From the UHGV virus genome UHGV-0140522: a stretch of 64,000 nt of DNA; one strand, given 5' to 3'. The notes under the pieces were generated by a model. It did not search any database. It was not told the origin of the DNA and worked only from the letters and a program-made list of their open reading frames with translations. This stretch comes from a virus. Each line of letters starts with the position of its first letter. Within the stretch, counting starts at the first letter, position 1. This document shows, piece after piece, positions 26,735 through 46,406 of this stretch. Position numbers and translations under genes: made by a program.

Positions 26735-27262
26735 ATGACGAATATTACTGACATCACCTACGGGATTCCTGCAGAAGTCTGGCCGCGCGATTACACCAAC
26801 GTGGAGAAGGCGCTGATGTTCTGGCGTAAGTCTCTCATTCCTGTAAGGGTCACGATGGAAGATGGTCAGGTGTTCTGCATGTACGTTCAGGGTCTCATGT
26901 CGTCGCGCAACAAAGTCGATCTTTGCCCTGCCCCGTTCGACAAAGAAAATCGTATAAGGCTCCCACTTGAGCGAATCAGTACGATTGAATCAGGTGTGAC
27001 AGAAAGCATTGCGCACGATTTCACGGGTCGGACAACGGTACACCCAGACTATGTGGACAATCGGCCATCTCGCCGTGATTTCTTCAAAATTTGTCGCCAG
27101 GCTCATGAGATGCAGAAGTCTATAAGGGTCTACATGGCGGATGGCCGTGAAATTGAGGGTGTGTCTTCAGGCGTTGACGCTTGCCAGGTCACGCTCAACA
27201 TGGGGGACGGTCGGAAGACAGTCGTCATGTTCGATTGGGTCGAACGGATTTTACCGTTTTAA
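26735..27262 (+). CDS. hypothetical protein with internal ~80-aa duplication
   Basis: Halves align (KSLIPVRVTMEDGQVF.. vs KSIRVYMADGREI..); DNA repeat TCTATAAGGGT appears in both halves; followed by a rho-independent terminator. Confidence 0.4.
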   Translation: MTNITDITYGIPAEVWPRDYTNVEKALMFWRKSLIPVRVTMEDGQVFCMYVQGLMSSRNKVDLCPAPFDKENRIRLPLERISTIESGVTESIAHDFTGRTTVHPDYVDNRPSRRDFFKICRQAHEMQKSIRVYMADGREIEGVSSGVDACQVTLNMGDGRKTVVMFDWVERILPF

Positions 27263-28286: not shown

Positions 28287-28490
28287 ATGATTAGTTATGA
28301 CCAGATCCGCGCGGAGTATCGCGCAAAATATCGCGCTTATAAACTTGAATTAATCGACGACTTAAAAGCGCAACGTGACAAATTAAATTTTACGTTTTCT
28401 GATTTGCTTAACAGCAAAAGAGACTGTAAACGCAAACGTGAATATTTGCGCTTGTCTGAAATGATCGGAAAACTACAAAACAGCATTTAA
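28287..28490 (+). CDS. hypothetical small coiled-coil protein (67 aa)
   Basis: Charged heptad-like sequence; bracketed by the same hairpin in opposite orientations. Confidence 0.4.
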   Translation: MISYDQIRAEYRAKYRAYKLELIDDLKAQRDKLNFTFSDLLNSKRDCKRKREYLRLSEMIGKLQNSI

Positions 28491-28492
28491 GC

Positions 28493-28518
28493 AATAGCGC
28501 CCATAGTGGGCGCTTTTT
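28493..28518 (+). terminator. rho-independent terminator
   Basis: GCGCCCATAGTGGGCGC plus TTTTTT. Confidence 0.65.
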
Positions 28519-28540
28519 TCGTTTCAAGATCCGCACACCA

Positions 28541-28568
28541 TAACGCGCCATTGTTGGCGCGTTTTTTA
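28541..28568 (+). terminator. second tandem terminator
   Basis: AACGCGCCATTGTTGGCGCGTT plus TTTTTT. Confidence 0.55.
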
Positions 28569-28989
28569 TTGTCTGAAGTCAGCCAAAACAGACCCAAAAT
28601 AAGCGCCATAAACGCGCCAATTTAACGCGTTTTTATGTGTGGTGGTACATGCCCATTACCCACAATAAAAAACACGTTATAGCGCGTTTTACAGCGTTTT
28701 AGCGCGTGGCTTATTTTTTCGTGTCGTGGGCGTGATCGTCTGGCGATATCTGGCGACGTGATCCGCGCTATCCTTCGGGACGTGTCGGCAATATTGGCAT
28801 GATCCGTGGGCGCTCGCGTATCATTGGCACGTTGGCGTGACGTGTACGCGCTTGCAGTGGTTTACCCACGGATTCACATAATCACATAGCGAAAGCTATC
28901 TGGATGGCTCAGGGGCTGAAACCCCACCAGCGCTACCCCAGCGCCCCTGCGATATTTTCTGGCAGGATTCTGGGCTTCTCCCGCTCTGT

Positions 28990-29100
28990 TTTCTACATAA
29001 AGGCAAACCCAGCCGTTTCCCGAAAATTCCCTGGCCGTTTCCCTTCGGTTCCCCGGACAGCCCTCTGGCCGTTTCTGAATATCCCTGCGGCAGCTGGTGG
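28990..29100. repeat. three direct copies of GCCGTTTCC(C) in a non-coding stretch; related triplet at 32225-32300
   Basis: agCCGTTTCCCg / gGCCGTTTCCCt / gGCCGTTTCtg spaced 22-32 bp; no ORF. Confidence 0.5.
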
Positions 29101-29130
29101 ACGAAAAGAAAGGGGCGTTTCCAGCCCCTC
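29100..29130 (-). terminator. rho-independent terminator for the 29136..29618 gene
   Basis: Minus-strand hairpin AGGGGCTGGAAACGCCCCT followed by TTCTTTTCG. Confidence 0.55.
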
Positions 29131-29135
29131 CCCTC

Positions 29136-29618
29136 TTACTTGCCAGCCAGGATGTGAATGCGGTTCTTTCCGTACACCTCTTTCACGTAGTCCCCGCACG
29201 AGATACTCCACGAGTCGATTCCTGCTTCATAGATGACGTTTTTGCACTTGATGGCGTTGTTGGCGATGCGCATTCCCTCCCCCACTGCTTCCTGTTCGCT
29301 GAAGTCGAACCCGGATTCTGTTTTAACCCATAGCGCGATCTGCGTGGCGAACTCGATGAGTTTTGACTGGCAGAAGCGACCGCTGCGTACCGGGAAGATG
29401 AATACGCCAAATCCCGAGGTGGAGACATACGCTTTCTCAAATACGCGCTTATGGCGACGGTTGCAGATAATGTCATTGGTGATCTGCTGTTTCTCTTTCC
29501 CGGACAGCTCGATGGCTACATTGTCACGCCAGGCGCCCAGCACGCTTTTCTCGTTATCAGAGAACGTCACAGAAATATGGCCATGCGCAGGGGTGTTAAC
29601 AGTAGCGATAAAATTCAT
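29136..29618 (-). CDS. hypothetical early protein (160 aa)
   Basis: Early operator motif then AAAGGA 8 nt before the ATG. Confidence 0.5.
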   Translation of the reverse strand: MNFIATVNTPAHGHISVTFSDNEKSVLGAWRDNVAIELSGKEKQQITNDIICNRRHKRVFEKAYVSTSGFGVFIFPVRSGRFCQSKLIEFATQIALWVKTESGFDFSEQEAVGEGMRIANNAIKCKNVIYEAGIDSWSISCGDYVKEVYGKNRIHILAGK

Positions 29619-29631
29619 ATCATCAATCCTT

Positions 29632-29666
29632 TAAACAACTTGTTTTCTTGTTGGTTTAATTATCGC
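29632..29666 (-). promoter_or_regulatory. early promoter/operator motif copy
   Basis: TAAACAACTTGTTTTCTTGTTGGTTTAATTATCGC; 14 nt upstream of the start codon on the gene strand. Confidence 0.6.
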
Positions 29667-29734
29667 TACGCGCATAAGGTGTCCAAGCGTTCTGTTCCGG
29701 CAGCTGGTGGCCGGCAGGGAGTCGGAGAGTTGTT

Positions 29735-29770
29735 CGGTAGCCTGGCGGCAAGAGGTGGGTGTTTTTAGCC
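29735..29770. repeat. TAGCCTG-N-AAGAGGTGGGTGTTT element, also present 3 times at 32905-32995
   Basis: cggTAGCCTGgcggcAAGAGGTGGGTGTTTTtagcctg. Confidence 0.45.
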
Positions 29771-29823
29771 TGCGGGAAACAGGATGGTCATTTAAGGCCA
29801 CCAGCGTGGGTGGCCTCGTTCTC

Positions 29824-30105
29824 TTAGTGGAGCAAACCGACGTCGATGGTATCGCCGGAGCCATCCACGCGGATCATCAGCATGGCGAAGGCATTTAGTG
29901 GGTAGCCTGCGTGCCAGTCCGGGAAGCGGTCATCGCGCATGAAGTCGGCAATGTCATAAACGCTGTCCTCAAAGCGGAAGAAACGGGCATCACATTGTTC
30001 GTCCTGTTCAACGTGATCCATTTCCTGCTGCTCTTCCGGCGACAGGTCGAGCCAGGATTCCAGCCATACGTTTTCAGCTTTAGGGGAGATGGTGAAATCG
30101 GTCAT
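29824..30105 (-). CDS. small acidic protein (93 aa from Met at 30105), DNA-mimic/anti-restriction-like composition
   Basis: About 27 percent Asp+Glu; GGAGGA 7 nt before the ATG at 30105. Confidence 0.45.
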   Translation of the reverse strand: MTDFTISPKAENVWLESWLDLSPEEQQEMDHVEQDEQCDARFFRFEDSVYDIADFMRDDRFPDWHAGYPLNAFAMLMIRVDGSGDTIDVGLLH

Positions 30106-30123
30106 GTGCATATCCTCCATGCG

Positions 30124-30158
30124 TAAACATCTTGTTTTCTTGTTGGTGTAATTATCGC
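30124..30158 (-). promoter_or_regulatory. early promoter/operator motif copy
   Basis: TAAACATCTTGTTTTCTTGTTGGTGTAATTATCGC. Confidence 0.6.
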
Positions 30159-30231
30159 AATGTGGATAAGGCAAAAAACATTTTGTTATCGGGAATAAGA
30201 AAATGGCGCGGGGTACGCGCCATTGGAGGGA

Positions 30232-30627
30232 TTAAGCGAATACGCTTTCCGGGATGTAGTTTTCAACCGGTTCGTTGGACACGATGCGCAGACCGTATTG
30301 TCCAAGCCAGGTGTTGCTCGGGTTCAAGTAGGAGGTGTACAGCTCGTCTGCTTTCACCATCATCTTCTCAAACATCTCTTTGTTTACGCCGCGGAAATAC
30401 GTTTCCAGTTTCAGCAGCATTGGTTCGGATGCGTTGCTGATGCTCTGGAAGCCTACGGTGTACACCCCATCCTCTTCTGTCCCGGTGCGGATCAGGGTGG
30501 TGGTGAGCACTTCAGTCCCGTTCGTGCTGTCACGCAGAATAGCGGTCAGTTTTGCAACTTTTCCGCCTGAGGTTGTTTCTGACGCATAGTACAAATCAAG
30601 AACCAGGTTTTCACGAATTACAGTCAT
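30232..30627 (-). CDS. hypothetical protein (131 aa from internal Met with GGGAGA RBS)
   Basis: Track ORF 30232..30678 trimmed to MTVIRENLV. Confidence 0.45.
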   Translation of the reverse strand: MTVIRENLVLDLYYASETTSGGKVAKLTAILRDSTNGTEVLTTTLIRTGTEEDGVYTVGFQSISNASEPMLLKLETYFRGVNKEMFEKMMVKADELYTSYLNPSNTWLGQYGLRIVSNEPVENYIPESVFA

Positions 30628-30665
30628 TTTTGGTCTCCCTGTTGTTGACCTGATTATATTATTGT

Positions 30666-30695
30666 CGTAGGTAAGCACTTACAATACAGGTAAGC
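30666..30695. promoter_or_regulatory. AT-rich palindrome family member (GGTAAGCACTTAC)
   Basis: cgTAGGTAAGCACTTACaatacaGGTAAGC, about 40 nt upstream of the 30627 start. Confidence 0.4.
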
Positions 30696-30755
30696 AAAAA
30701 AGCCCCGAAGGATGGACGGGGCTGTCGTAGGGACGACTAATCGCTTTTGCACATG

Positions 30756-31067
30756 TCAGGCTGTCGCCAGGAGAGAGGCACGCTGGATTTCTTGCTGGGC
30801 TACTTTGTTCGCTTCCAGTAGCGCCTGTTCCAGCTCTCCTTCCGGCCAGATGATCTGTTTTGCCATCCACCCTCTTCCACTCTGGCGACGCACACTCATT
30901 ACGTAACGCGTGCGGGAACCATTGTCGAACGAGACCAGCGTCTCTTTGAACAGGCGAATAGCAGTGCCGTTGGCGATGATATCGAGCAGGGTCAGCTGGC
31001 TCATTACGGTTGGTTTTTCTTTACGTGGCTGGCCCGCGCTCAGTTTGGTGATCATCGCGTTTTTCAT
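30756..31067 (-). CDS. hypothetical early protein (103 aa)
   Basis: GGAGTG RBS; motif copy upstream. Confidence 0.5.
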   Translation of the reverse strand: MKNAMITKLSAGQPRKEKPTVMSQLTLLDIIANGTAIRLFKETLVSFDNGSRTRYVMSVRRQSGRGWMAKQIIWPEGELEQALLEANKVAQQEIQRASLLATA

Positions 31068-31078
31068 AATTCACTCCG

Positions 31079-31114
31079 TAAACAACTTGTTTTCTTATTG
31101 GTGTAAATAATACC
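31079..31114 (-). promoter_or_regulatory. early promoter/operator motif copy
   Basis: TAAACAACTTGTTTTCTTATTGGTGTAAATAATACC. Confidence 0.6.
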
Positions 31115-31207
31115 AGCGAGAAAACGGCTACAAAGCATAGCGTTACGGTGCTGCGCTGCCCCGGAGGTTGCAAACAGCAAAAAGCCACCGTGCTGGTGGT
31201 CTCACTC

Positions 31208-31426
31208 TTAATCTTCGTCGTCCGGGAACTCGATGTGTACCGCGTCCACCAGCTCCCGCTGTTCATCTTCACTGAGCAGATGCCAGATATCCTTCCCTTT
31301 GGGTGATTCCCCTTCAGCCGGGACGAACGACCACAACTTGCGGTACAACTCCGGCCCCACAGCATCCAGGCACTCAGCCAAGGAATCCTCGCTCCACACC
31401 TCAACCATCACAGGCATCTTAATCAT
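31208..31426 (-). CDS. small acidic protein (72 aa, MIKMPVMVEVW...)
   Basis: Track ORF 31208..31618 trimmed to the Met 11 nt after the upstream stop; Asp/Glu-rich. Confidence 0.4.
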   Translation of the reverse strand: MIKMPVMVEVWSEDSLAECLDAVGPELYRKLWSFVPAEGESPKGKDIWHLLSEDEQRELVDAVHIEFPDDED

Positions 31427-31436
31427 CTCTTCACCC

Positions 31437-31652
31437 TCACTTCGTTTCTGACGTCGTGCAGTTCCACGCGACGGACATTGGGTTGTCCTCGATATGGAAA
31501 TCAAACGTCCCTTCTCTATATCCTTCAGAGATGAGCGTCGCCACGCGACCAGCAACATCCTGGGAACGGATAACGTCATCGAGGGAGATCTCACACTCGG
31601 AGGACTCTTCCTCGCCACAGAGGGTGATGCTGATATTCAGATGCTTGTACAT
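31437..31652 (-). CDS. small acidic protein (71 aa)
   Basis: AAGGAG RBS; motif copy upstream. Confidence 0.5.
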   Translation of the reverse strand: MYKHLNISITLCGEEESSECEISLDDVIRSQDVAGRVATLISEGYREGTFDFHIEDNPMSVAWNCTTSETK

Positions 31653-31668
31653 GTGTTTCTCCTTTGTC

Positions 31669-31703
31669 TAAACACGTTGTTTTCTTGTTGGTGTTATTAT
31701 CGC
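31669..31703 (-). promoter_or_regulatory. early promoter/operator motif copy (between divergent genes)
   Basis: TAAACACGTTGTTTTCTTGTTGGTGTTATTATCGC. Confidence 0.6.
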
Positions 31704-31794
31704 AATAAGAAAACGGGGAAAAAGAATTCCTTAAAGGCTGATGTGCTTGTGCCGATTTATTGCTATGTATGTATCTGGCTAACTCAGAGGGAAT

Positions 31795-32040
31795 GTGATG
31801 AGCACTAAAGACTACACAGACGGGTACTTCAGCATCGACGCCGAGAGAGGCGAGTTGCTACATGGCGGCATCACTGTCGGACGCGTCATTTTGGTTAACG
31901 GTCAGATTTACACAGAGCTGGACGATACCAGTTCAAGCGCACCTGTCGTCTCCGGCCCCTTCGGGACAAGAGAAGAGGCGCTCGATGATTTGTGGGACAA
32001 CAGGGACGATGCGAATCAGGGCAGTGAGATTTTCGAATAA
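31795..32040 (+). CDS. small acidic protein (81 aa), plus strand
   Basis: GAGGGAA RBS; divergent from the 31652 gene. Confidence 0.45.
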   Translation: MMSTKDYTDGYFSIDAERGELLHGGITVGRVILVNGQIYTELDDTSSSAPVVSGPFGTREEALDDLWDNRDDANQGSEIFE

Positions 32041-32049
32041 ACGTCCTCG

Positions 32050-33030
32050 GCGATTTCACCACCAAAACCCGTAACCCTTTACACTAGATCTGGCTTCCCG
32101 ATATGAGCGTGCGAAGCTGATCTGGTCTCAATGCTCAACTGCGGGATTCACCAATTCCCGCACTATTCAGGTGAATGAGGAAAAGGCATACTCCCGCAGC
32201 CGTCCCTCGCTCTGAACTGGGATGTACCCGTTTCCCGACCGGCAGCCAGCCTTTTCCCTGCGGCGATGCCCCCGTTCCTGAAAAGGAACATGGCCTTTTC
32301 CCTAGATGGCCCGAAGGCTGACCGAAGGGGTGGATAGGGACGTTACGGGGGATGAAAACTATGGCTTGAATTTCTACGGAGAAAGTAGCGATACCCCTCT
32401 TCCCCTTCCCACTTATACCTCCAGTTAAATCTCTACGGATTTTCTCTCCTGTGGACGTGTAAACCTTCCCCCTGATAACGCTCTATACGGCGAGTATTCC
32501 TTTGGGTGAAATGGGTGGTTTGTTCTCTCTACCGGCGTATGTGGTTTCGTTGTTCTTGAGGTGGTTCTTCTCTGTGTTTTCGTCTGGGTTGTTCTCGTCG
32601 TTTTGGTGAGTGTTCTTCTCCGTGTATAGAGTAATGGCATGTGCGCTTCTCTCTTCGTTTACGTGAAGAGATGGAAGTGTGGGTAATGGCAGTAGGGCGC
32701 TTTTGTTGTTCTCCGCATATGAAGTAATGGCGTTCCCTGCTATTCAGGAATTTGCGCTCCCTTTCGGGGTAATGGTGGGTAAACGAGATTGCGACGGTTC
32801 CTGTTCTGGTCTGGGTTTGTCCGGGGTTTCGTTCTGGCTGTTCTTCTCCGTGTATTGGGTAATGGCGTGTAGGGGTTTGCGTGCGCGAGCTGCGTTCTCG
32901 GTTGCCTGGGGAGATTAGGTGGGTGGTCTGTAGCCTGGGGCAAAGAGGTGGGTCTTTTCGGTAGCCTGACAGGAAGAGGTGGGTGTTTCCGGGATTGTGG
33001 GTAATGGCGTCTCTGGTTTTCCTGTGGGTG
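32050..33030 (-). ncRNA. candidate ~1 kb non-coding RNA / repeat-rich regulatory region
   Basis: No credible ORF; strong strand skew; six or more GTAATGGC repeats, a 226-bp internal duplication, three CCCACCTCTT...CAGGCTA repeats; an early motif copy at 33033-33070 is positioned to drive minus-strand transcription with no start codon or RBS after it. Confidence 0.4.
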
Positions 33031-33032
33031 TG

Positions 33033-33070
33033 GTTAACTTGTTTTCTTGTGCCTGAAAACAACTTGTTTA
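33033..33070 (-). promoter_or_regulatory. early promoter/operator motif (double partial copy) at upstream end of the non-coding region
   Basis: GTTAACTTGTTTTCTTGTGCCTGAAAACAACTTGTTTA. Confidence 0.5.
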
Positions 33071-33262
33071 GATGTCCAATATAACGCAACGGGAGCGCTT
33101 CTGAGCGTGTCTGTTTTTGGGTGGTATCACGAGTCGTTTTTGACGTTTTGGTCGCAGGGAGATGGATTCTGGTGCGTAGGATTTTGGGTATAAGAGATGG
33201 CTTGCGAAAACGTCAACTTTTTAGACCAAATCAAGGGAAAGCGTTGACTTTTCGTTGATGTG

Positions 33263-33295
33263 TTATTTATTTGTTTTCTTATGGGTGTAATTGGC
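33263..33295 (-). promoter_or_regulatory. degenerate early motif copy
   Basis: TTATTTATTTGTTTTCTTATGGGTGTAATTGG. Confidence 0.35.
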
Positions 33296-33412
33296 TTAAA
33301 TGCCTTGTCACGCCTGGGCTGGGGCAGGTTGGAGGGGTGGGGAAAGTGGCGATCAACGGACTCTTATAGAAATCCTCAATTTGTGACCGCCAATGTCAAC
33401 GAGTTGCAGCCG

Positions 33413-33982
33413 CTAGTTGTTCAGATAGGCATCAGGAACGCGGACATAAAAGTTTCTGTCGCCGGTCAGTTCCAGAGTAACGTTAATGTCATTGCCGTTA
33501 TCCAGCGTAGCCGTCGCTTTATAGAACTTGTCCGTCACCTTGTCCTGAATTGTCACCTTCATACATTTCGGCGCTGTGGTTCCGTTATTCTCTTTCAGAA
33601 TGGTCGTTACGAGAGGACAAGCCGCTTCTTCAAGAGCAACCTCTTCCTGGTGCGGGATGCCGATAAAGATGATGCAAGCCAGCGAAGCGACAATGACGAT
33701 AAACGGAATCCGACTCCCTTTTGTGATGGTCGCACGCTTCCAGAGATAGACCGGCAGGAAGAGTACGCCCCACAAAATGGCCGGTGGTTCATAGCCTGCT
33801 TCTGAGAGTGCCATTCTGTCGGCCACCAGCAAACCGATGACGGCAACACCGCCAATGACCATTGCGTAATTGAAGTACTCGTCTGGCGGTACGCCAAAGA
33901 AGAGAGGCAGGAACGCTAATATCCACGCATAAATATTTTTCAGAGGTTTTGTTTGTTGGTTCTGGGTTTCCATCACATCCAT
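33413..33982 (-). CDS. integral membrane protein (4 predicted transmembrane helices)
   Basis: Hydrophobic segments IYAWILAFLPLFF, VIGGVAVIGLLV, ILWGVLFLPVYLW, IVIVASLACIIFIGI. Confidence 0.55.
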   Translation of the reverse strand: MDVMETQNQQTKPLKNIYAWILAFLPLFFGVPPDEYFNYAMVIGGVAVIGLLVADRMALSEAGYEPPAILWGVLFLPVYLWKRATITKGSRIPFIVIVASLACIIFIGIPHQEEVALEEAACPLVTTILKENNGTTAPKCMKVTIQDKVTDKFYKATATLDNGNDINVTLELTGDRNFYVRVPDAYLNN

Positions 33983-34059
33983 TCCATCAGATTAAAACAG
34001 TGGTCATATGTTACCAATTTTCCTCGCTTATATAACCTGATTACTCAACGGGTGGGCGA

Positions 34060-34380
34060 TCACCAATCCCATGCAGGCAGCCCATCCACCATCTCGGCGT
34101 CGCAATCGAAGTGAACCGCGTCATAGCCGGCATCCAGTACCTTCTGAATGTTCTCGATGGTTTGCCATGTGACGCCGTAATCACGTAGCTCTTCTTTCCA
34201 GTCGTTGCCACGCATACCTGCGCGGACAATCCATCCGTACTCCGTGCCGTGTACCCAATTCAGTCCACGATCTGTTAGTGGGTCGAAACAGATATTAGGC
34301 AGACACTCAGAGTCATGCTGTGTAACGTGGGCGGTGCTGATCACCGCCGTCTTATACGATTCGGTGATTTTCAGCATCAT
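34060..34380 (-). CDS. hypothetical early protein (106 aa)
   Basis: Coupled to the upstream gene (ATGA overlap). Confidence 0.45.
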   Translation of the reverse strand: MMLKITESYKTAVISTAHVTQHDSECLPNICFDPLTDRGLNWVHGTEYGWIVRAGMRGNDWKEELRDYGVTWQTIENIQKVLDAGYDAVHFDCDAEMVDGLPAWDW

Positions 34381-34631
34381 GCCTTCTCCTTTGGAAACAG
34401 AATGTCGGCCGTGTCAGAAATGACATCCCAATTCACACCGACGCTGGCGTCATGGCACTCTTTGATTTTTCGCAAAACCTGAACGCACTGTTTGTCAGTC
34501 AGATCTGGTCGCACTTCACCTACATCTTCCTTGTGCCACATTACCATCAGCAGCGGCTCGTCTTCTGGGTAGTTCTCCAGCTTTTCGATGATGTCTTTTG
34601 CGGTTCCGAACATGATTAACTCCTTAAACAA
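34377..34631 (-). CDS. hypothetical early protein (84 aa)
   Basis: AAGGAG RBS; motif copy upstream. Confidence 0.5.
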   Translation of the reverse strand: MFKELIMFGTAKDIIEKLENYPEDEPLLMVMWHKEDVGEVRPDLTDKQCVQVLRKIKECHDASVGVNWDVISDTADILFPKEKA

Positions 34632-34657
34632 CTTGTTTTCTTGTTGGCGTTATTATC
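34624..34657 (-). promoter_or_regulatory. early promoter/operator motif copy
   Basis: TTAAACAACTTGTTTTCTTGTTGGCGTTATTATC. Confidence 0.6.
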
Positions 34658-34698
34658 TAAAATAACAAAAGGCAGAAAACAAGATGTTTAAGGGATGA

Positions 34699-34965
34699 TT
34701 AGGTGAGTTTGAAGTCGTCCGCATCGTCGACGAACTCCATAAATCTGGCCTCCACGCTTGAGTGCGTTATCAGAAACTCAAGACCCCTTCCAAGCGAGGT
34801 TGGTTCTTCCAGCAAAAACTCGAACCCATCTTCATGAGTCCTGCCTAACCAGTATCCGCCGCCATACTCCTTCAATCGTTGAAAGAAAACGTACTGCCCC
34901 GGTTTGAAATTTTGAAGAGTCTCGCCCCTATAAACGATCTGATAGTTTGAGTCTTTGAGTCCCAT
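34699..34965 (-). CDS. hypothetical protein (88 aa from MGLKDSNYQ...)
   Basis: Trimmed from 34699..35022 to the Met with RBS. Confidence 0.4.
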   Translation of the reverse strand: MGLKDSNYQIVYRGETLQNFKPGQYVFFQRLKEYGGGYWLGRTHEDGFEFLLEEPTSLGRGLEFLITHSSVEARFMEFVDDADDFKLT

Positions 34966-35152
34966 TTTTTCGCCCTCAATACTGTATATACAAACAGTAG
35001 TATTTATTACTATACCGGTCAACTTTGCGGGTTAAGGGAATAACAAGGTGGTGAAAACAATTTGTTTCGGCACTTGAGATTTTGCAAACCGCACATACAT
35101 GAAAAGCGGCAATTTTTGAAACCTGATTTGACCCAAGTGAAAGGAGGAAACG

Positions 35153-35356
35153 ATGAAGACCTATGATCGCAACCGTAACGCTATCACTACCGGCAGCCGA
35201 GTGATGGTGGCAACGAATGGTGCAACGGGAGTCATCAAGGAAATCTGCGGAGAAGGCAAATCAGAAGAACAATTACGCCGTTCTGACTGCGTGTCTATCG
35301 AAGGTGTGGAGGGTCTGTTCTGCCCAATGGATTTAGTTCGCCTGGGATTCCATTAA
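35153..35356 (+). CDS. hypothetical small protein (67 aa)
   Basis: AAGGAGGAAACG RBS; plus strand. Confidence 0.5.
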   Translation: MKTYDRNRNAITTGSRVMVATNGATGVIKEICGEGKSEEQLRRSDCVSIEGVEGLFCPMDLVRLGFH

Positions 35357-35384
35357 TTTAATAATCTAGAAAACAAATTGTTTA

Positions 35385-35404
35385 AGGCCACTACTGTGGC
35401 CTTC
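35385..35404. terminator. hairpin between convergent genes (possible bidirectional terminator)
   Basis: AAGGCCACTACTGTGGCCTT; stem resembles the hairpin upstream of nrdA. Confidence 0.35.
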
Positions 35405-35406
35405 AT

Positions 35407-35778
35407 TTACTCTGCGATAAGCGATCCAATCATCGCCTGTAGCTCTCGTTCTTTTTCTTTGGCTACACGGAGTAATTCGGCATTTACATGACGTTGCAGC
35501 TTATCCATTACGCGGAACGACGGACGGCGCATGACGCTCTCGTCGATGGCTTTGGTATTCAAGCTAATAAGATGCCCGAAGTGGTTGAAGCCAGCCCCGA
35601 CGAACACTTCATATAGCTGGGCATCGCGCTCAAACAGAGCGATCCCATTTCGCACCTCAAGCAGCGTTCCTTCCTCAATAAGCGTATCCAGCGCCTTATC
35701 CCAGACCGGACAAAAGCGATAATTGAAACCTTCCAGTAATGCTGTAAAAAACAGCGAAACGGCATTACCCAACTTCAT
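35407..35778 (-). CDS. hypothetical protein (123 aa)
   Basis: Three-gene minus-strand cassette with 35781..36071 and 36059..36748. Confidence 0.45.
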   Translation of the reverse strand: MKLGNAVSLFFTALLEGFNYRFCPVWDKALDTLIEEGTLLEVRNGIALFERDAQLYEVFVGAGFNHFGHLISLNTKAIDESVMRRPSFRVMDKLQRHVNAELLRVAKEKERELQAMIGSLIAE

Positions 35779-35780
35779 AG

Positions 35781-36071
35781 TTACTCTTCCTTACTCCTTG
35801 CTCTGTTAGCCTGCACTTCCTTAGCCAGCTCGTAGGTAATTTTGCACGGCACAATCATCGCCCAGCCTTTTTCGTGGCTGTTAATCACCTGCTGAACATG
35901 GCCGTCTGTAATGGGCAGATCCGGCAACTGTTTAAAAACTTCCATCTGCTCATGGATATGCAGAAACCACCTTGCCAGCTCCATCTGCTCACCGCGGGTG
36001 AGGGGATTATCCAGCGGGGACTTAACAAAAGCGGAGACGCGCTCGACAGGCAGATCATTCATGCCGCGCAC
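35781..36071 (-). CDS. hypothetical protein (96 aa)
   Basis: Start overlaps the upstream gene. Confidence 0.45.
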   Translation of the reverse strand: MRGMNDLPVERVSAFVKSPLDNPLTRGEQMELARWFLHIHEQMEVFKQLPDLPITDGHVQQVINSHEKGWAMIVPCKITYELAKEVQANRARSKEE

Positions 36072-36748
36072 CTCTCTGCTTTATCCTGCAATTCGCGGAC
36101 ATACTCGACCAAAGAGCCGCCTGGTGGGACCTGGCATTCCTCAACTAACTGGAAGTAGATGTCTGCGGCCGCGCGTGTGTTCGAGCCTTTGTTTAGCTGC
36201 TCTTCGCGCAGCGCATCACGTTCGTTGATCAAACGAACACACTCGCCGTTACGCTGATCAACAACGGCCTCAAGTTCAGCGATACGTTCGCCTGGCGTCT
36301 TGCCTTCTTTGCGCTGGATGGTGACGGTAAACTCGCCCATTTCAGGAACGTTGTATCCCAGCTCCAGGTAATTTCTGGCGCCGCTGCGGACGAACTCACC
36401 TGCGAACATGGTGGCGAACATCGCAGAGGCCATCTCTCCTTTGAAAAGCGACTCCAGAGCTAACGGAGTGCCGGCAGACAGAGCCTCTTTTGCTGTGTCC
36501 ATTGCGTCCATGAACCGGTCGAACTCATTGGCGCGTTTCTCAAGGTCTCTCCACTGCTGGCTCCAACGGCGTGCCAGATGTTCGATAAAAACCTGCGCCG
36601 ATTCATCAAAGTTACCTTCGAACGTCACAAGCTCCTTGTCGATTTTGATGGTTCCGGCAGGCGTTCCTTCGTTCCCCTGTAGCACTAAATTAAATGGCAG
36701 CTTCGCCTGATTAACGCTGGCGAATGTAATTCTCGATTTTTCGCTCAT
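36059..36748 (-). CDS. hypothetical protein (229 aa)
   Basis: First gene after the methyltransferase. Confidence 0.45.
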   Translation of the reverse strand: MSEKSRITFASVNQAKLPFNLVLQGNEGTPAGTIKIDKELVTFEGNFDESAQVFIEHLARRWSQQWRDLEKRANEFDRFMDAMDTAKEALSAGTPLALESLFKGEMASAMFATMFAGEFVRSGARNYLELGYNVPEMGEFTVTIQRKEGKTPGERIAELEAVVDQRNGECVRLINERDALREEQLNKGSNTRAAADIYFQLVEECQVPPGGSLVEYVRELQDKAERCAA

Positions 36749-36784
36749 GTGTTCACCTCTGATAAAGTGGCTCTATTCTTACAT

Positions 36785-36814
36785 AAATTAGGTAAGTATT
36801 TACCTATCATTTTA
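36785..36814. promoter_or_regulatory. AT-rich palindrome family member
   Basis: aaatTAGGTAAGTATTTACCTAtcatttta overlapping the methyltransferase stop. Confidence 0.45.
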
Positions 36815-38510
36815 CGCGTTTGAAAACGTATACGCTTACAGTGATTCCGGTGTCTTCAAACTCGTCAGTAAACGACTTCCCTTTGGCATAAACGTAATTA
36901 TCCAGCGTCATCCAGTTCAGAGCTGGCGCATCACCCGGCAGTACTGCCACCAGTCGCCCGCCGACTTTAAGATGCTCCAGCGCGGTCAGCGTATGCTCTC
37001 TGTGACGGCCAAGAGAGTAGGGCGGGTTCATGACGATTTTGTCGAACTGATAGCCTGCGTTGTCCTCAGACCACTTCATGAAGTCGCAGCAGACCGTATT
37101 TGTGTACCCCTTGCCAATCAGGATATCAGCGAAGAGAGGTGCGACTTCTATGCAGGTAACGTCTTCCGGATTGGCGTCGATGCAGGCCAACAGATCTCCG
37201 CGCCCGGCTTCAGGCTCCAGCAGCTTCTCACCTGACTTCAGCTCGATGGCTCTGGCAACGTACTCCGCTATCAAACGCGGGGTAGGGTAGAACTGGTGTG
37301 ATTTTGTATCCGGTATTAAGCCAGTGGCCACAATCGTATTTAGCGTATGACCGATCTCATACGGGAACTGCCAGTGCTTTTTCTCCTGCACACCGCCAAT
37401 GAAGTTCAGTGTGCGCTCAAGCTCTTCCACCTGTGACTTCTGTAGGTTGGAATCAGAGAAGTACCAGACGCCTTTGTCTTTGCTGAATCGCCCGTCGCGC
37501 AGCGCGGTACGAACCGGCTCGGAGATCGTCTTCTGGATTAACCCGAACTCTTTTGGTGCCGGTGTTTTGGGTGCAGTACGGCATGGCGCCGGGATTGCTG
37601 CAGGCATACTGTAAGCCAGCACCTCATTCAGCTTCCAGGCCACGTCAGGATGTATTTCAAAGTGAACGTTGCCGTTCTTGAACATCTTCACGCGCATCAG
37701 GTTTCCGTCGACATTCATCCAGTCACCGGTCTGGCAGTCGTTTGCCCGGTACGCAGCTGATAGCATCTCAGTTGTGCGGTTGATGGTGATGAACTCTTTG
37801 TGCGCGAAGAAATGAAGCATGACGCGCAGATCGTCGATGTAGTCCTCTTTCCGGTAGTTCACGCTCACGCTGTCCCGCCAGAACTCGGAAATGAAGTTGG
37901 CGATGATCAGACGCTCGCTAAAGCCGTTCGTCTTATTGGTCTTGTGGGCAGGACTCAGCGCCTTAAACAAGCCATACACGCGCTCAGAGAGATATTTGTG
38001 CCTGTCATTCAGCAGATTGAGCATCGTGGGGATGACCGTTTCTGCTTTGAACTCCGGCACGCCAACGAACTCCTTAACCTTCATCTGGTAGCCGGTTCTG
38101 TCAGTCCTGATGGTTTCCTGTTTGCCTTCGATGAACTGCTCACGCCACTCGTCGCGGCGGGAAGCTGGCATGATCAGCAGAACGTTTGTCATATCCGTGA
38201 CCTTCTTCCAGTACTCGGCCCAGATATTCTGTTTCACCCATTCAAGGTCGACCTTGTCCAGCCAGGCTCTGTTAAAGCGTGTGCGCTCGTCATCCGGCCG
38301 GTGGTTGAGTCGCAGTAGGCGGTTAATCATGTTGTGGCGTTCGTCGCCATAAATGAAGTCGTGAACCTGATGCATGAATGCGATCTCTTTCTCGCACTCG
38401 GCCACAATTTCGTGGATGACGTTCATTTCCTGCCGGTAGTCGATATCAGTGTTTGGGGTGATAGCGTCAATGATAGAAAGAGCTGTATTCATGATTGCAC
38501 CATTAAACAA
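36807..38510 (-). CDS. orphan N6-adenine DNA methyltransferase fused to a ~400-aa N-terminal domain of unknown function
   Basis: C-terminal motifs QFYPTP, EPEAGRGDLL, NPPYS (NPPY catalytic motif IV); N-terminal 400 aa without recognisable motif; no adjacent restriction endonuclease. Confidence 0.6.
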   Translation of the reverse strand: MFNGAIMNTALSIIDAITPNTDIDYRQEMNVIHEIVAECEKEIAFMHQVHDFIYGDERHNMINRLLRLNHRPDDERTRFNRAWLDKVDLEWVKQNIWAEYWKKVTDMTNVLLIMPASRRDEWREQFIEGKQETIRTDRTGYQMKVKEFVGVPEFKAETVIPTMLNLLNDRHKYLSERVYGLFKALSPAHKTNKTNGFSERLIIANFISEFWRDSVSVNYRKEDYIDDLRVMLHFFAHKEFITINRTTEMLSAAYRANDCQTGDWMNVDGNLMRVKMFKNGNVHFEIHPDVAWKLNEVLAYSMPAAIPAPCRTAPKTPAPKEFGLIQKTISEPVRTALRDGRFSKDKGVWYFSDSNLQKSQVEELERTLNFIGGVQEKKHWQFPYEIGHTLNTIVATGLIPDTKSHQFYPTPRLIAEYVARAIELKSGEKLLEPEAGRGDLLACIDANPEDVTCIEVAPLFADILIGKGYTNTVCCDFMKWSEDNAGYQFDKIVMNPPYSLGRHREHTLTALEHLKVGGRLVAVLPGDAPALNWMTLDNYVYAKGKSFTDEFEDTGITVSVYVFKRVK

Positions 38511-38538
38511 ATTGTTTTCTTGTTGGTGTTATTTTCCC
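38503..38538 (-). promoter_or_regulatory. early promoter/operator motif copy upstream of methyltransferase
   Basis: TTAAACAAATTGTTTTCTTGTTGGTGTTATTTTCCC. Confidence 0.6.
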
Positions 38539-38633
38539 AAACTAGAAAAGGCGTAAAAGCAGCATTCACAGGCGTTGCAGCTGATTTAAGGCGTAAAAAT
38601 GGGGGCTTTCGCCCCCTGTCGGCAGGTGAGAAA

Positions 38634-39233
38634 TTAGTGGTGTACGTGCTGCGTTTTGTGCGGCTGTTTGTTCAGGTCGTGGCGATGCGTAAGCTCGCGC
38701 ATCATGTCTTCAAGACGACTCTTGGTGTCGTCAAGCTGGTCGGCCATTGCCCCCAGCAGCTGGCGAACGGCCATCGGATCGTCGCTGTTCAGCTCAGGCA
38801 TTTTGAACCCAGACTGTGAAGACATCAGTTTGAAAGCGGCCAGCAACATCGCCAGAGAAGACTTCAACCCGGCGATTTCACGATCTTTGCTGGCGTTGGT
38901 TTCATCTGCCTTGACTGAATCCGGTGAGCACTTCGGCTTGCTTACCATTTCCAGAGTTGCCTGAAGTTTGTCGGCGCGTTCTTTCTCTTCCAGATACGCT
39001 TCGCCGAAATGACGCGCCAGCATCACAATTTCAATAGGATCATCAATCATGCTAGAGAACTTGAGAGCGCTGAAAAGGCGGTCGATAGGGGAGGCGTAGT
39101 CTTCGTGACCAACCACAAGACCCATGATCTCAACCAGTTCGGCCGCACCAACTTTTTTAATCACGCTTTCAACTTTGGCATTAGTTTTTTTGCATTTTTC
39201 GCACATGTGTTTTTTCCTTATGTTTTTAAACAA
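38634..39233 (-). CDS. hypothetical protein (199 aa) with N-terminal CxxC
   Basis: MCEKCKK near the N-terminus; His-rich C-terminus. Confidence 0.45.
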   Translation of the reverse strand: MFKNIRKKHMCEKCKKTNAKVESVIKKVGAAELVEIMGLVVGHEDYASPIDRLFSALKFSSMIDDPIEIVMLARHFGEAYLEEKERADKLQATLEMVSKPKCSPDSVKADETNASKDREIAGLKSSLAMLLAAFKLMSSQSGFKMPELNSDDPMAVRQLLGAMADQLDDTKSRLEDMMRELTHRHDLNKQPHKTQHVHH

Positions 39234-39262
39234 GTTGTTTTCTAGATGGCGTTATTATGGCG
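39226..39262 (-). promoter_or_regulatory. early promoter/operator motif copy
   Basis: TTAAACAAGTTGTTTTCTAGATGGCGTTATTATGGCG. Confidence 0.55.
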
Positions 39263-39323
39263 TGACTGAAAAGGTGGGCAAACGCTACGTAAAGGCGGAC
39301 GCCCACGCTGAAGGTCTTCATTG

Positions 39324-39512
39324 TTAAAAAAATCCGAGAATGCTACCCACCGGAACAACGAAAATTCCCACGACACGCGCAAGTGTCATTCCGGCATCAA
39401 ACTGAAGATCGCCACCGTTCACGAGTTTCACCAGATTCATGATCCAGCCATCAAGCAGAAAAATGGCGAAGCCAACAATCATCTCGATGACTTTCTGGAA
39501 GCTCCATTTCAT
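39324..39512 (-). CDS. small two-helix membrane protein (62 aa; holin-like topology)
   Basis: Two hydrophobic helices (VIEMIVGFAIFLLDGWIM; ARVVGIFVVPVGSILGFF). Confidence 0.4.
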   Translation of the reverse strand: MKWSFQKVIEMIVGFAIFLLDGWIMNLVKLVNGGDLQFDAGMTLARVVGIFVVPVGSILGFF

Positions 39513-39521
39513 GCAATAGCC

Positions 39522-40016
39522 TCAGTCACAGCAGAAGGAAGATCCGGAGTTGCAGGTCGAGCTGGAATCGTGTCCAGCAGCATCCCATCCAGAGAGACAG
39601 GGGGTCGTTCTGGCAGTGGTGTCGTCTGCAGGGTTGTAGTGGAAGTAGTTGTGTCCGGTATCAACAGACTCTGACCGGCTGGTACGGCTACCGCTGCCAG
39701 GGTTGCTAAAATTACTCCGTAGGCCATTGGCTTCAGTCGATTTCGTTGAAAATTTTCCATGAGAACTGTCCTTGTGTGCCTGGGATTCACGCAACACACG
39801 AGAGGCGACGGAATCACGCACCTTCTCCATGCCTACTGTCGCGCCCAGATTTGCTATGGCGGTAGCTTGCGCATCAATGCGCTTCTCCAGCTCAAACACT
39901 CGTTCTTCCAGTTCCGCAAGGCGTGCAGAAACACAACCGCTAAACAGCTCGGCCAGAACCAGGCGAATTGAACGGGGACGTTTATTGAAAGAAGTGAAAG
40001 GCGTTTGACGTGCCAT
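39522..40016 (-). CDS. hypothetical protein (164 aa) with N-terminal coiled coil; second overlapping frame 39509..39817 encodes a signal-peptide/Pro-Thr-rich product
   Basis: LAELEERVFELEKRIDAQATAIANL heptads; the overlapped frame reads MAYGVILATLAAVAVPAG...TTTSTTTLQTTPLPERPP. Confidence 0.35.
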   Translation of the reverse strand: MARQTPFTSFNKRPRSIRLVLAELFSGCVSARLAELEERVFELEKRIDAQATAIANLGATVGMEKVRDSVASRVLRESQAHKDSSHGKFSTKSTEANGLRSNFSNPGSGSRTSRSESVDTGHNYFHYNPADDTTARTTPCLSGWDAAGHDSSSTCNSGSSFCCD

Positions 40017-40140: not shown

Positions 40141-40172
40141 AAAATGATAGGTAAATACTTACCTATCATTTT
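40141..40172. promoter_or_regulatory. 32-bp near-perfect palindrome of the GGTAAGTACTTACC family at the left edge of the cargo island
   Basis: AAAATGATAGGTAAATACTTACCTATCATTTT. Confidence 0.5.
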
Positions 40173-41147: not shown

Positions 41148-42350
41148 TTAGTGTACCTTCCTATTTTGACGGGATGTTGCATATGTCATCACTACCGCCC
41201 CCAGTAGTAACAAACCACTTAAACCAAATGCACTTCTCCATCCCAGACTGTCGAATGCCAGACCTCCAGCCGTTGAACCAAGCGCAATCGATAGCTGGAT
41301 CACCGCAACCATGAGGCCACCACCCCTCTCTGCATCTTCGGGTAACGCTCGTGCTATCCATGTCCACCATCCTGTTGGCGCAGCCGTCGCAAGTAGCCCC
41401 CACAGGCTTAATAATACGGCAACGGCCCAGATGTGGTGTCCGACCAGCAGTAACGCACCAGTAATCGCGGCCATAAGCAACGGGATCATGATTAAGGTCT
41501 TGTAAAATTTGGCGTTCAGGAATGTTGAGACGATCATTGTGCCGACAAAACCTGCTATGCCTATTGCAAGCAAAATCAGAGAAAGGTTAGAAGGTCCCAC
41601 TCTGGTGACGCTCTCCAGAAAGGGGCGCACGTAGGTAAACAAAGCAAACTGTCCCATAAAGAAGAGCCCGCAGGCAAGCATTCCCGTTGGTACGATGGCA
41701 ACGCTGAACAGACGAAGCACAGACCCCTGTGGTTTTTGTGTTTTATCGCTTTCCATCGAAGGCAGGCTGAACCATTGCCAGATGAACGCAGCTATCGCAA
41801 GAGGGACGAGACATAAAAAGGCCCCACGCCAACCGACCGTTGTCCCCAGATAACTACCAAGCGGCGCAGCCACAACGGTGGCCAGCGCGTTACCGCCGTT
41901 AAAAATTGCCAGTGCGCGGGGAACCTGGTGCTGTGGCACGAGCCGAATGGCGGTTGCAGCCGACATTGACCAGAACCCTCCGATGACGACGCCAATCAGA
42001 GCCCTCCCCAGCATATAAATCGGATAGTCAGGCGCCATGGTGATAACTAACCCTGATATGGCCATTAAGACCGTTAGCCCAAGCAGAAGATATTTACGAT
42101 TCAGGTCTCCGGCAATATGGGAGATAGTCAGACTGGTCAGCACTGCCAGTGCGCCAGAGACGGCAATTCCTTGCCCTGCCAACCCTTCGGTAACGTGCAA
42201 ATCGCGGGCAATGAGCGTAAGCAGGCTGACTGGCATAAACTCAGAAGCGATCAGCACAAACACGCAAAGCGTCATGGCAAATACGCCGCTCCAGTATGCA
42301 TGCTTTTTTTCGTATGATGGTTTTAGACTTACAGTGGACATTATTAGCAT
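41148..42350 (-). CDS. MFS efflux transporter, NepI (purine ribonucleoside efflux) family-like
   Basis: 12-transmembrane DHA1 MFS; N-terminal region closely resembles E. coli NepI as I recall it ([38 protein letters not shown]). Confidence 0.8.
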   Translation of the reverse strand: MLIMSTVSLKPSYEKKHAYWSGVFAMTLCVFVLIASEFMPVSLLTLIARDLHVTEGLAGQGIAVSGALAVLTSLTISHIAGDLNRKYLLLGLTVLMAISGLVITMAPDYPIYMLGRALIGVVIGGFWSMSAATAIRLVPQHQVPRALAIFNGGNALATVVAAPLGSYLGTTVGWRGAFLCLVPLAIAAFIWQWFSLPSMESDKTQKPQGSVLRLFSVAIVPTGMLACGLFFMGQFALFTYVRPFLESVTRVGPSNLSLILLAIGIAGFVGTMIVSTFLNAKFYKTLIMIPLLMAAITGALLLVGHHIWAVAVLLSLWGLLATAAPTGWWTWIARALPEDAERGGGLMVAVIQLSIALGSTAGGLAFDSLGWRSAFGLSGLLLLGAVVMTYATSRQNRKVH

Positions 42351-42518
42351 CCCTTAATATCGAACCAGCCAGATTCAGGCGCAGTCGGGTCAGAAGTTAT
42401 TCAGGGAATAACGACATAATAGGTGGGTGAGAATATGGGGCGATGTGACATATTCGGCGTCACACCAGGCAGGTAAAAGCCACCCGTTTATGACAGGTGG
42501 CCTGGTAAACTTTTCGGG

Positions 42519-43667: not shown

Positions 43668-43825
43668 CATAAAACGTGCCAGAAACAGGTTTCCTACGGA
43701 CAACGCTGCTGTGCTTTGTTGCAATGCGCACATTATAGTTAGCAGAAATAGTACTGATTAGAGGGTGAAAAATGCTAAGATTGATAACATATTGTTCTGA
43801 ATTGTGATGCGGCAGCAGGGGAAGG

Positions 43826-45788: not shown

Positions 45789-46406
45789 TTACGCTGCCTT
45801 TTTACGTGGTCTCTTCTTCCTGACAACATTGGCAGGATCATAACCACCCAGCTTTTTCATCACCGCCAGCGGTATCTTGCTGATGGTGTGCCCAGCTTCC
45901 TGACAGTAGCCACGGAAGATAAGCAACATGCTACCACCAGGGTTGATGTTCACCTCCACCAGCCCAAGTTCAACATCCGGCTCAACGAACGCCACGCGGC
46001 CGCCAGACAAGATGACGGTTTCGTTGGCGCATTCAGCCGCACGCTCGTACCACTGCGTATCGAGGGATTGTGGTATCAACATGACTGTCGTCACTCCACG
46101 CGCCTGCTCGCGAATGGCTGCGTCTATCCAGGGGGTGATTTTGGAGTAGGGCGGGTTAAGGAACGCCACAGTGCCAGGTTCTCCCCAGCTGCACTTGAGC
46201 GCATCACGCTCAACACCGATAAAGTTCGGCAGGAGGGCATTATCTTTGTTGCAGGCGACGTCCACATCGAACTTTACGCCTATGTAACGTTGGATGGCGA
46301 CAAACAACCACTGCGGTGTGCGCCAAAGGTCGCGAAGAGAGGCATCACGCTCTCGCTTTTTGATTTTTTCGGCTGCGATCATTACTTTGTTCTGATAGGT
46401 AAACAC
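45789..46406 (-). CDS. dam: DNA N6-adenine methyltransferase (phage Dam family)
   Basis: LWRTPQWLF and FLNPPYS motifs; alternative ATG at 46382 because the listed start is a GTG inside a palindrome. Confidence 0.6.
   Translation of the reverse strand: MFTYQNKVMIAAEKIKKRERDASLRDLWRTPQWLFVAIQRYIGVKFDVDVACNKDNALLPNFIGVERDALKCSWGEPGTVAFLNPPYSKITPWIDAAIREQARGVTTVMLIPQSLDTQWYERAAECANETVILSGGRVAFVEPDVELGLVEVNINPGGSMLLIFRGYCQEAGHTISKIPLAVMKKLGGYDPANVVRKKRPRKKAA

Follow-up and report, generated by a model that had tools for sequence, protein, structure and literature searches.

A dispersed putative promoter-operator cassette in an accessory island of an SSU5-type phage-plasmid that shares gene families with plasmid leading regions

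Introduction

In the phage-plasmid P1, the C1 repressor is associated with many scattered operators, an arrangement referred to as dispersed-operator immunity. Coliphage 186 carries the p95/tum SOS operon, which is under the control of LexA. T4-type phages are said, following a 2010 study by Arbiol, Comeau and Krisch, to contain hyperplastic early regions with repeated promoter/stem-loop (PeSL) cassettes. In conjugative plasmids, the leading region is documented as an island of anti-defence genes in which orphan methyltransferases are abundant (Samuel et al. 2024, PMC11541004), and phage-plasmids of the SSU5/pHCM2/pMT1 type form a known and widespread group (PMC7969092). Here, we analyze a gene island from an element of this group, located at positions 29136 to 40016 of a 64,000-nucleotide stretch of the virus genome UHGV-0140522, and compare it with each of these systems. 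The whole 64-kb stretch is referred to below as the window.

An initial annotation of the DNA had described the island as an early-expressed set of small acidic proteins, membrane proteins, and an orphan methyltransferase probably devoted to anti-defence and host takeover. The explanation that we favor, with a probability of roughly 0.55, is that the interval is a variable accessory module whose promoter cassettes would be off in the plasmid state and would drive an early burst of host-preparing proteins. In this model, in which the time of expression, the nature of the repressor, and all protein functions are our inferences, the island would contain at least eight short leftward transcription units, seven of them starting with the same ~36-bp cassette. 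A repressor encoded by the element would keep these cassettes off in the plasmid-prophage state, and they would fire following DNA entry or SOS induction. The orphan methyltransferase, comprising a DUF4942 domain and an N6-adenine methyltransferase domain, would methylate the incoming genome and enable it to evade restriction. Proteins of the DUF1380 and DUF5983 families, and possibly a co-operonic acidic protein of 93 residues, would be establishment factors, as in plasmid leading regions, and a LexA-controlled gene of 88 codons would link part of the island to the SOS response.

Results

Plasmid pRHBSTW-00524_2 from a Citrobacter isolate matches the whole length of the island with 99.7% identity, and 94% of the island aligns at 95% identity with genes SSU5_091-117 of Salmonella phage SSU5. 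Plasmids matching the island, 783 records in all, came from Klebsiella, Escherichia, Enterobacter, Yersinia, Salmonella, and Citrobacter, and almost all of them were typed as non-mobilizable. The island is flanked on the left by genes for the tail, capsid, and terminase, two ParB-like genes, a helicase gene, and a regulator gene, and on the right by a cargo insertion, nucleotide-metabolism genes, and RepA. On the basis of these homologies and flanking phage and plasmid genes, the window is, as judged from its sequence, part of an SSU5/pHCM2/pMT1-type phage-plasmid. Since the window is 99.7% identical to the deposited Citrobacter plasmid, the sequence is not new, and the island genes are annotated as hypothetical in databases. 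In the RefSeq annotation of the 99.7% identical plasmid, the interval holds 19 genes, 17 of which are on the minus strand, in agreement with the open reading frames reported by the initial annotation, which had counted about 20 short genes.

The island contains a repeated cassette of ~36 bp, motif-1, which consists of a -10 box, 3 nt, and a 24-nt CA-rich element holding the palindrome AAACA-N3-TGTTT. The sequence ACCAACAAGAAAACAAGTTGTTTA had 7 matches within 3 mismatches versus 0 expected, and the core palindrome, AAACAnnnTGTTT, was found 12 times in the window versus 0.06 expected. Seven full cassettes, one degenerate copy, and four core-only copies are located in the island. The seven full copies have a GATAAT-like -10 box, preceded by TGn (extended -10) in four of them, and end 8 to 25 nt 5' of a start codon, always in the orientation of the gene. 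The following full cassettes were identified by motif search.

29632..29667, minus strand: motif-1 cassette (GATAAT, 3 nt, ACCAACAAGAAAACAAGTTGTTTA) before 29136-29618
30124..30159, minus strand: motif-1 cassette (TGcGATAAT extended -10) before 29824-30105
31079..31114, minus strand: motif-1 cassette (TGgTATTAT) before 30756-31067
31669..31704, minus strand: motif-1 cassette (TGcGATAAT) before 31437-31652
34625..34660, minus strand: motif-1 cassette, with an inverted core copy at 34673-34690
38504..38539, minus strand: motif-1 cassette before the methyltransferase gene
39227..39262, minus strand: motif-1 cassette, the sole copy with a sigma-70-like -35 box (TTGCCC)

A simple sigma-70 scan recovered only one cassette, because most of them are devoid of a -35 box. 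Since the 24-nt element lies 3 nt after the -10 box, it would cover about positions +1 to +24 of the predicted transcript. The operator motif that the initial annotation attributed to about 20 genes is therefore real, as indicated by the number of cores, but it directly heads only seven units comprising 9 genes, or up to 14 with read-through. Neither is it specific to the island. In the window, two adjacent copies (20768-20816) precede the small-terminase gene and another (53540-53563) lies between nrdA and nrdB, indicating that the element is a genome-wide signal. A weight-matrix scan of the whole reference plasmid detected 17 sites, 11 of which are in the island (9% of the genome); the others precede small-terminase, nrdB, DnaB-helicase, DUF2591, AAA-ATPase, and large "porphyrin biosynthesis" genes. 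The cassette is kept in relatives with different flanking sequences. In the most diverged lineages, some copies retain the -10 box and the CA-rich leader and have lost the 3' half of the palindrome.

A second dispersed palindrome, motif-2 (TAGGTAA-N4-TTACCTA), had 14 matches versus 0.85 expected and occurs in the window at positions 5251, 11776, 15372, 17299, 18813, 24345, 30668, 36789, 40148, 45338, 46396, 55979, and 60670. Three island units carry motif-2 rather than motif-1, and one carries a LexA box.

30668..30685, unstranded: motif-2-like palindrome TAGGTAAGCACTTACAAT, 41 nt 5' of the start of 30232-30627 (palindrome search)
36789..36806, unstranded: motif-2 palindrome TAGGTAAGTATTTACCTA, 41 nt 5' of the start of 36059-36748 (palindrome search)
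40148..40165, unstranded: motif-2 palindrome TAGGTAAATACTTACCTA, upstream of 39522-40016 (palindrome search)
34980..34999, unstranded: perfect LexA box TACTGTATATACAAACAGTA, 15 nt 5' of the start codon of 34699-34965 (pattern search)
34699..34965, minus strand: 88-aa protein of a prophage SOS-operon family (homology), with its own LexA box

Elsewhere, motif-2 is found in short intergenic gaps of the late operon, before a Dam-type methyltransferase gene, and at the promoter of the helicase-regulator operon; in the reference plasmid, a copy precedes a gene encoding a helix-turn-helix (HTH) repressor. The motif reads TAGGTA-AC-TACCTA in the most diverged lineages. As in P1, a short operator-like sequence is thus scattered over the genome of a plasmid-prophage before many lytic and accessory units. 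The two elements differ by the sequence of the operator and by the presence, in the island element, of two motif families and a still putative repressor.

Apart from the LexA box, no site in the window fits the 20-nt LexA-box pattern without a mismatch. The box is conserved (CTGT-N8-ACAG) in SSU5, AnCo3, and pNH25.3, in which changes are confined to the spacer. The family of the 88-aa protein comprises more than 230 clusters and is found in lambdoid and P2-like (P2/186-like) prophages. In an Enterobacter P2/186-like prophage, a 60% identical homologue is the third gene of an operon that follows a LexA box, downstream of replication gene A, and lies beside a DinI-like gene, a position that we take to be that of the SOS (tum) operon of coliphage 186. 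This prophage locus (L012, 5400-6261) encodes a 62-aa protein, the DinI-like protein, and the 86-aa homologue of the island protein; an AIPR-domain gene, a possible defence gene, comes after the operon. The island gene resembles its prophage counterpart in having a LexA box, which is perfect and its own, and differs from it in standing alone, without DinI-like or Tum-like partners. We know of no antirepressor activity in the 88-aa protein family. An AlphaFold2 model of the family (pLDDT of 71) gave no Foldseek match in the PDB or BFVD at an E value of ≤0.001. Since the gene has its own LexA box and its family is one encoded in a prophage SOS operon, it points away from anti-defence and is more likely tied to SOS signalling, as part of induction control or SOS physiology. 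Its transcript is predicted to be induced by DNA damage; the SSU5-like element Cyrano is induced by genotoxic stress (PMC9928086).

One candidate for binding to motif-1 is encoded to the left of the island.

26735..27262, plus strand, outside the island: FljA-family regulator, 175 aa (Pfam Flag1_repress)

Residues 6 to 172 of this protein gave a full-length match to PF03614 (Flag1_repress; E value of 1e-96), and it is 33 to 37% identical to proteins annotated as phase-1 flagellin repressors. Its gene, the last of the helicase operon, is core to ~830 SSU5-like plasmids. Its target could be the fliC of the host or transcripts of the element itself. FljA acts post-transcriptionally, by blocking the translation of the fliC mRNA (PMC2652032). 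Because the regulator is a full-length member of this family, binding to the motif-1 leader is conceivable. Regulation would then occur in the RNA, the 24-nt element shutting off or gating the translation of the regulon, as with RegA of T4. Besides the proximity of the regulator gene (2 kb from the island), this improbable scheme draws on the position of the element, always in the same orientation between the -10 box and the Shine-Dalgarno sequence. Several observations argue against it. The motif does not change along with the regulator (56 to 72% identity), and a search for covariation between the two in lineages as diverged as 56% identity found none. Cores are present in either orientation and also at 3' ends, which fits a DNA palindrome better. 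The RNA stem would consist of only five A-U-rich pairs, and motif-1 has no resemblance to the E. coli fliC leader. Finally, the annotated lysogeny repressor of Cyrano is an HTH protein encoded next to the integrase gene, which is located outside this window. A bolder version of the scheme combines two proposals, namely that the FljA-family protein runs the early regulon through the 24-nt leader of ~17 transcripts, as a RegA-like translational repressor originating from flagellar phase variation, and that the regulated island holds several new anti-defence families. We regard this combination as a long shot.

The evidence that relates the island to plasmid leading regions comes from the methyltransferase gene and from a two-gene segment.

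36807..38492, minus strand: orphan DUF4942 plus gamma-type N6-adenine (NPPY) methyltransferase, 561 aa (Pfam, motifs)
34060..34380, minus strand: DUF5983 protein, 106 aa, acidic (Pfam); homologues adjoin ssb in the IncL leading region
34377..34613, minus strand: 78-aa protein named DUF1380 by PGAP; 4-nt overlap with the DUF5983 gene

The methyltransferase matched DUF4942 in Pfam at residues 139 to 295 (E value of 4e-22). Its C-terminal N6-adenine methyltransferase domain contains EPEAGRG (S-adenosylmethionine [SAM] motif I) and NPPY (motif IV) in the gamma-class order. This domain gave a weak Pfam N6_Mtase match, PADLOC MTase_II and PHROG methyltransferase family matches, and M.TaqI as its nearest solved relative, with a marginal E value of 0.024. 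The neighbouring genes encode proteins of 190 and 229 residues devoid of any Pfam or PADLOC nuclease match, in support of the initial description of the fusion as an orphan. The window encodes another orphan adenine methyltransferase, at 45789-46406 on the minus strand; it belongs to the phage Dam type (Pfam Dam; E value of 5e-37), and motif-2 overlaps the start of its gene.

Full-length homologues of the island methyltransferase, with ~30% identity, are present in large plasmids, and 3,392 of the 5,000 best-scoring records of the search are conjugative. The methyltransferase domain by itself matches a protein from the leading region of an IncF plasmid, annotated as "class I SAM-dependent methyltransferase". 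In IncK and IncL plasmids, genes for proteins consisting of DUF4942 only adjoin oriT, in the company of ArdA or KlcA, ssb, and psiB. DUF1380 genes are present in the leading regions of IncF and IncL plasmids. Homologues of the DUF5983 protein were found in 2,332 plasmids, 1,679 of which are conjugative. One pOXA-48-like IncL plasmid has, within 6 kb of the relaxase operon, genes for DUF4942 and DUF1380 proteins, a DUF5983 homologue (39% identity), and an antirestriction protein, as well as ssb.

Like the leading regions analyzed by Samuel et al. (2024), the island is made of co-oriented (17 of 19), small, and mostly unnamed genes together with an orphan adenine methyltransferase, and the two have DUF4942, DUF1380, DUF5983, and the methyltransferase domain in common. 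In both, expression is expected upon entry into a new cell. There are three differences. First, no known anti-defence gene (ArdA, KlcA, PsiB, or anti-CRISPR) or ssb was detected in the island. Second, there is no oriT, the closest records are typed as non-mobilizable, and the annotation of the reference plasmid shows no relaxase. Third, the island promoters look like double-stranded extended -10 promoters with operators, although no search was made for single-stranded Frpo promoters. The possibility that the island is itself a conjugative leading region was rejected because transfer genes are not present. Self-methylation by the methyltransferase is the best-supported single function proposed for the island.

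The initial annotation had singled out four strongly acidic small proteins as potential DNA mimics acting against restriction.

29824..30105, minus strand: 93-aa protein, most acidic of the window, net charge -16, pI 4.05; SSU5-like elements only
31208..31426, minus strand: 72-aa acidic protein, net charge -13, pI 4.2 (PHROG family)
31437..31652, minus strand: 71-aa acidic protein, net charge -9; leads a two-gene unit (PHROG family)
31798..32040, plus (opposite) strand: 80-aa acidic protein, net charge -12, without motif-1 (PHROG family)

The computed net charges confirmed that no other protein of the window is as acidic as these four, and the small proteins of the island are more acidic than those encoded elsewhere (p = 0.04 in a crude comparison). 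Strong negative charge is a feature shared with DNA mimics of the ArdA/Ocr type, as is small size, but charge alone is not specific to them. The charge density in the island does not exceed -0.17 per residue, below that of Ocr, which is about -0.24 per residue. The 93-aa protein gave no match in Pfam, the PDB, or PADLOC. Comparison of the 93-aa family with ArdA and KlcA by hhalign returned probabilities of 0.05 and 0.5%, respectively, and comparison with DUF1380 revealed no similarity. In tblastn searches of two leading-region loci with all island proteins, neither ardA nor klcA was matched. The AlphaFold2 model of the 93-aa family had a pLDDT of 51, too poor for a fold search. The DNA-mimic proposal is thus unsupported beyond charge. 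In a diverged lineage, the gene for the 93-aa protein is located directly upstream of a 78-aa gene and a DUF5983 gene in a shared operon, which loosely ties it to the leading-region-type set. A perfect DnaA box (TTATCCACA) is present on the minus strand at ~30160-30170, just 5' of the -10 box of the cassette preceding this gene; it is intact in SSU5 and has one change in AnCo3, and it may be a chance occurrence.

Between the genes ending at 32040 and 33413, ~1.3 kb of the island is devoid of genes, a stretch that was absent from the initial annotation. Most of it is conserved.

32336..33406, unstranded: conserved non-coding block of ~1.1 kb (comparison with four relatives)

This block is 70 to 91% identical in the four relatives and shows a strong G+T bias on the plus strand. 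It contains six GTAATGG repeats, three tandem units of ~30 nt (GGTAGCCTG..AGAGGTGGGT), GTTGACG/CGTCAAC repeats, a degenerate motif-1 promoter (33263-33298), and a core palindrome (33053-33070). No open reading frame is conserved in it among the relatives compared. Its predicted RNA folding was no better than that of shuffled sequences on either strand (z-scores of -1.5 and -0.9). An Rfam scan detected no family at the gathering score and only four chance-level matches (E values up to 1), none of which lies in the block; a tRNA scan found no gene. Our guess is that the block is a protein-binding array, such as a lytic origin.

The island differs from that of SSU5 at four indel or replacement sites. 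Three of them correspond to insertions in SSU5 (a repressor-like gene; LprI with an HD-domain gene; Ant), and the fourth to the replacement of a gene encoding a protein with four transmembrane (TM) helices by two other genes in SSU5. Other relatives carry in this region superinfection-exclusion, TerB/DUF3927, S24 peptidase, polymerase III theta, GIY-YIG, or metG genes. Like the PeSL regions of T4-type phages, the island is made of small genes, each located behind a nearly identical unit of a promoter and a palindrome, with a gene content that varies between relatives. Two of the four junctions with SSU5 are flanked by motif copies, suggesting, again in parallel with the PeSL regions, that recombination may occur at the repeats. 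The phages are of another type, and the palindrome is 3' of the promoter in the island and 5' of it in T4-type phages.

Such a mosaic could also be a "moron" region with no common purpose. The island would then gather what is left of lambdoid ea-type genes (Ead/Ea22, Eaa), together with an SOS-operon gene, YdfZ, modulators of replication or recombination, and perhaps, within the non-coding block, a lytic origin, and the cassette would be a standard early promoter. This account is possible, if somewhat doubtful. It is in line with the presence of the cassette before nrdB, the small-terminase gene, and, in the reference plasmid, the DnaB-helicase gene and three others; with the HD-domain, RNase H, polymerase III theta, S24 peptidase, GIY-YIG, and Rha/Ant genes that relatives have at the same sites; with the iteron-like repeats of the non-coding block; and with the Ead/Eaa-type annotations in SSU5 and Cyrano. 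It does not readily explain why three island families are found together with anti-restriction genes in the leading regions of plasmids, why the island concentrates the window's four most acidic proteins, or why the core genes are kept across a family of ~800 plasmids, and we prefer the accessory module preparing the host.

Published expression data are available for Cyrano, which is 81% identical to SSU5 over 65% coverage (PMC9928086). In a Cyrano lysogen of strain LF82, most homologues of the island genes (CYRAN_83-111) had values of 5 to 17, versus a prophage median of 9.8 (PMC9928086, S1 table), the exceptions being the S24 peptidase gene, a cargo gene, and four others, which were expressed. 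This background-level expression fits repression in the plasmid state and does not address timing after entry. Together with the overlap between the cassettes and the predicted transcript starts and with the four variable sites relative to SSU5, it lends indirect support to the initial description of the island as early.

The same data bear on a further alternative, in which the island is a module of lysogenic conversion or superinfection exclusion. Its membrane and small proteins would guard the carrier cell against other phages and plasmids and would serve defence rather than anti-defence. Two membrane proteins are indeed predicted.

33413..33973, minus strand: 186-aa protein with four hydrophobic helices followed by a C-terminal soluble domain of ~80 aa (hydrophobicity)
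39324..39512, minus strand: 62-aa peptide with two hydrophobic helices (hydrophobicity)

Both had been recognized in the initial annotation, which placed the start of the former at 33982 instead of the annotated 33973. At the right end of the island, relatives have genes annotated as encoding a superinfection-exclusion protein and TerB/DUF3927 (P1 TciA/TciB-like) proteins, and an SSU5-like Klebsiella plasmid reportedly aids defence against invading DNA, according to the abstract of one paper. We nevertheless consider this alternative improbable. PADLOC detected no defence component besides the methyltransferase domain, most homologues are silent in the Cyrano lysogen, in which conversion genes should be on, and the presence of operators at the promoters speaks for repression while the element is carried.

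The remaining genes of the island are as follows.

29136..29618, minus strand: 160-aa basic protein, pI 8.7; conserved across the SSU5 group; phrog_1641; no PDB match
30232..30627, minus strand: 131-aa protein; terminator-like hairpin 3' at 30202-30224 (PHROG family)
30756..31067, minus strand: 103-aa basic protein (PHROG family)
35153..35356, plus strand: YdfZ-family protein, 67 aa (Pfam); core palindromes at 35051-35068 and 35367-35384
35407..36748, minus strand: three-gene unit (229, 93, and 123 aa); Cyrano homologues annotated as Ead/Ea22-like and Eaa-like
38634..39206, minus strand: 190-aa protein; terminator-like hairpin 3' at 38601-38616 (PHROG family)
39522..40016, minus strand: 164-aa protein with a Ser/Thr-rich tail (PHROG family)

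Each island protein matches, roughly end to end, a PHROG family of unknown function, and Pfam names only DUF5983, YdfZ, and DUF4942/N6_Mtase. Just left of the island, a gene-free segment (28490-29130) contains back-to-back terminators (28496-28514 and 28542-28563), CGTTTTAGCG in tandem (28675-28707), TGGCGA/TGGCA repeats, and three GCCGTTTC(C) repeats, which recur at 32150-32310. The cargo insertion at the right edge (41148-44713) encodes an MFS transporter, an alpha/beta hydrolase, and a LysR regulator; at this position, the 99.7% identical plasmid has instead IS66, a DUF2254 gene, and betT.

Discussion

The proposal that the island is an anti-defence set receives support from families that it shares with IncF, IncL, and IncK leading regions, where they lie beside ArdA or KlcA, ssb, and psiB, but none of its proteins matched a known anti-defence family. 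We consider the proposal reasonable for the methyltransferase and plausible for the shared leading-region families, in both cases by association. Several points weigh against the early host-preparing module. In Pfam, PHROGs, and PADLOC, no known anti-defence or defence family was matched beyond the generic methyltransferase matches, and sequence searches of the PDB with the 93-, 88-, and 160-aa proteins and the whole methyltransferase returned nothing significant. The acidic family is unlike ArdA, KlcA, or DUF1380, and the structure models were uninformative, being poor for the 93-aa protein and without a fold match for the 88-aa protein. An AntiDefenseFinder screen of 1,227 contigs of the SSU5 group detected almost no known anti-defence systems (bioRxiv 10.1101/2025.09.12.675607). 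A few island genes are expressed in the Cyrano lysogen. Quite different roles are conceivable for the membrane proteins, YdfZ, and the Ead/Eaa-like genes. Finally, because the element is non-conjugative, the logic of leading regions would apply to it only by analogy with the entry of phage DNA.

New here are motif-2, the LexA box before the gene of the SOS family, the 1.1-kb non-coding block, the neighbouring FljA-family regulator, and the three leading-region families. The two dispersed palindromes and the LexA-box gene provide a first, testable map of the switch between plasmid and phage life in elements that carry resistance genes and are widespread among Salmonella Typhi, Shigella, E. coli, Klebsiella, and Yersinia pestis. 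If the scheme based on the FljA-family regulator were true, the island would hold several new anti-defence families in a group in which current tools detect almost none. Since the island appears to be repressible and shares families with leading regions, it is an obvious place to seek the missing anti-defence functions of SSU5-type phage-plasmids, with about ten conserved small proteins as candidates.

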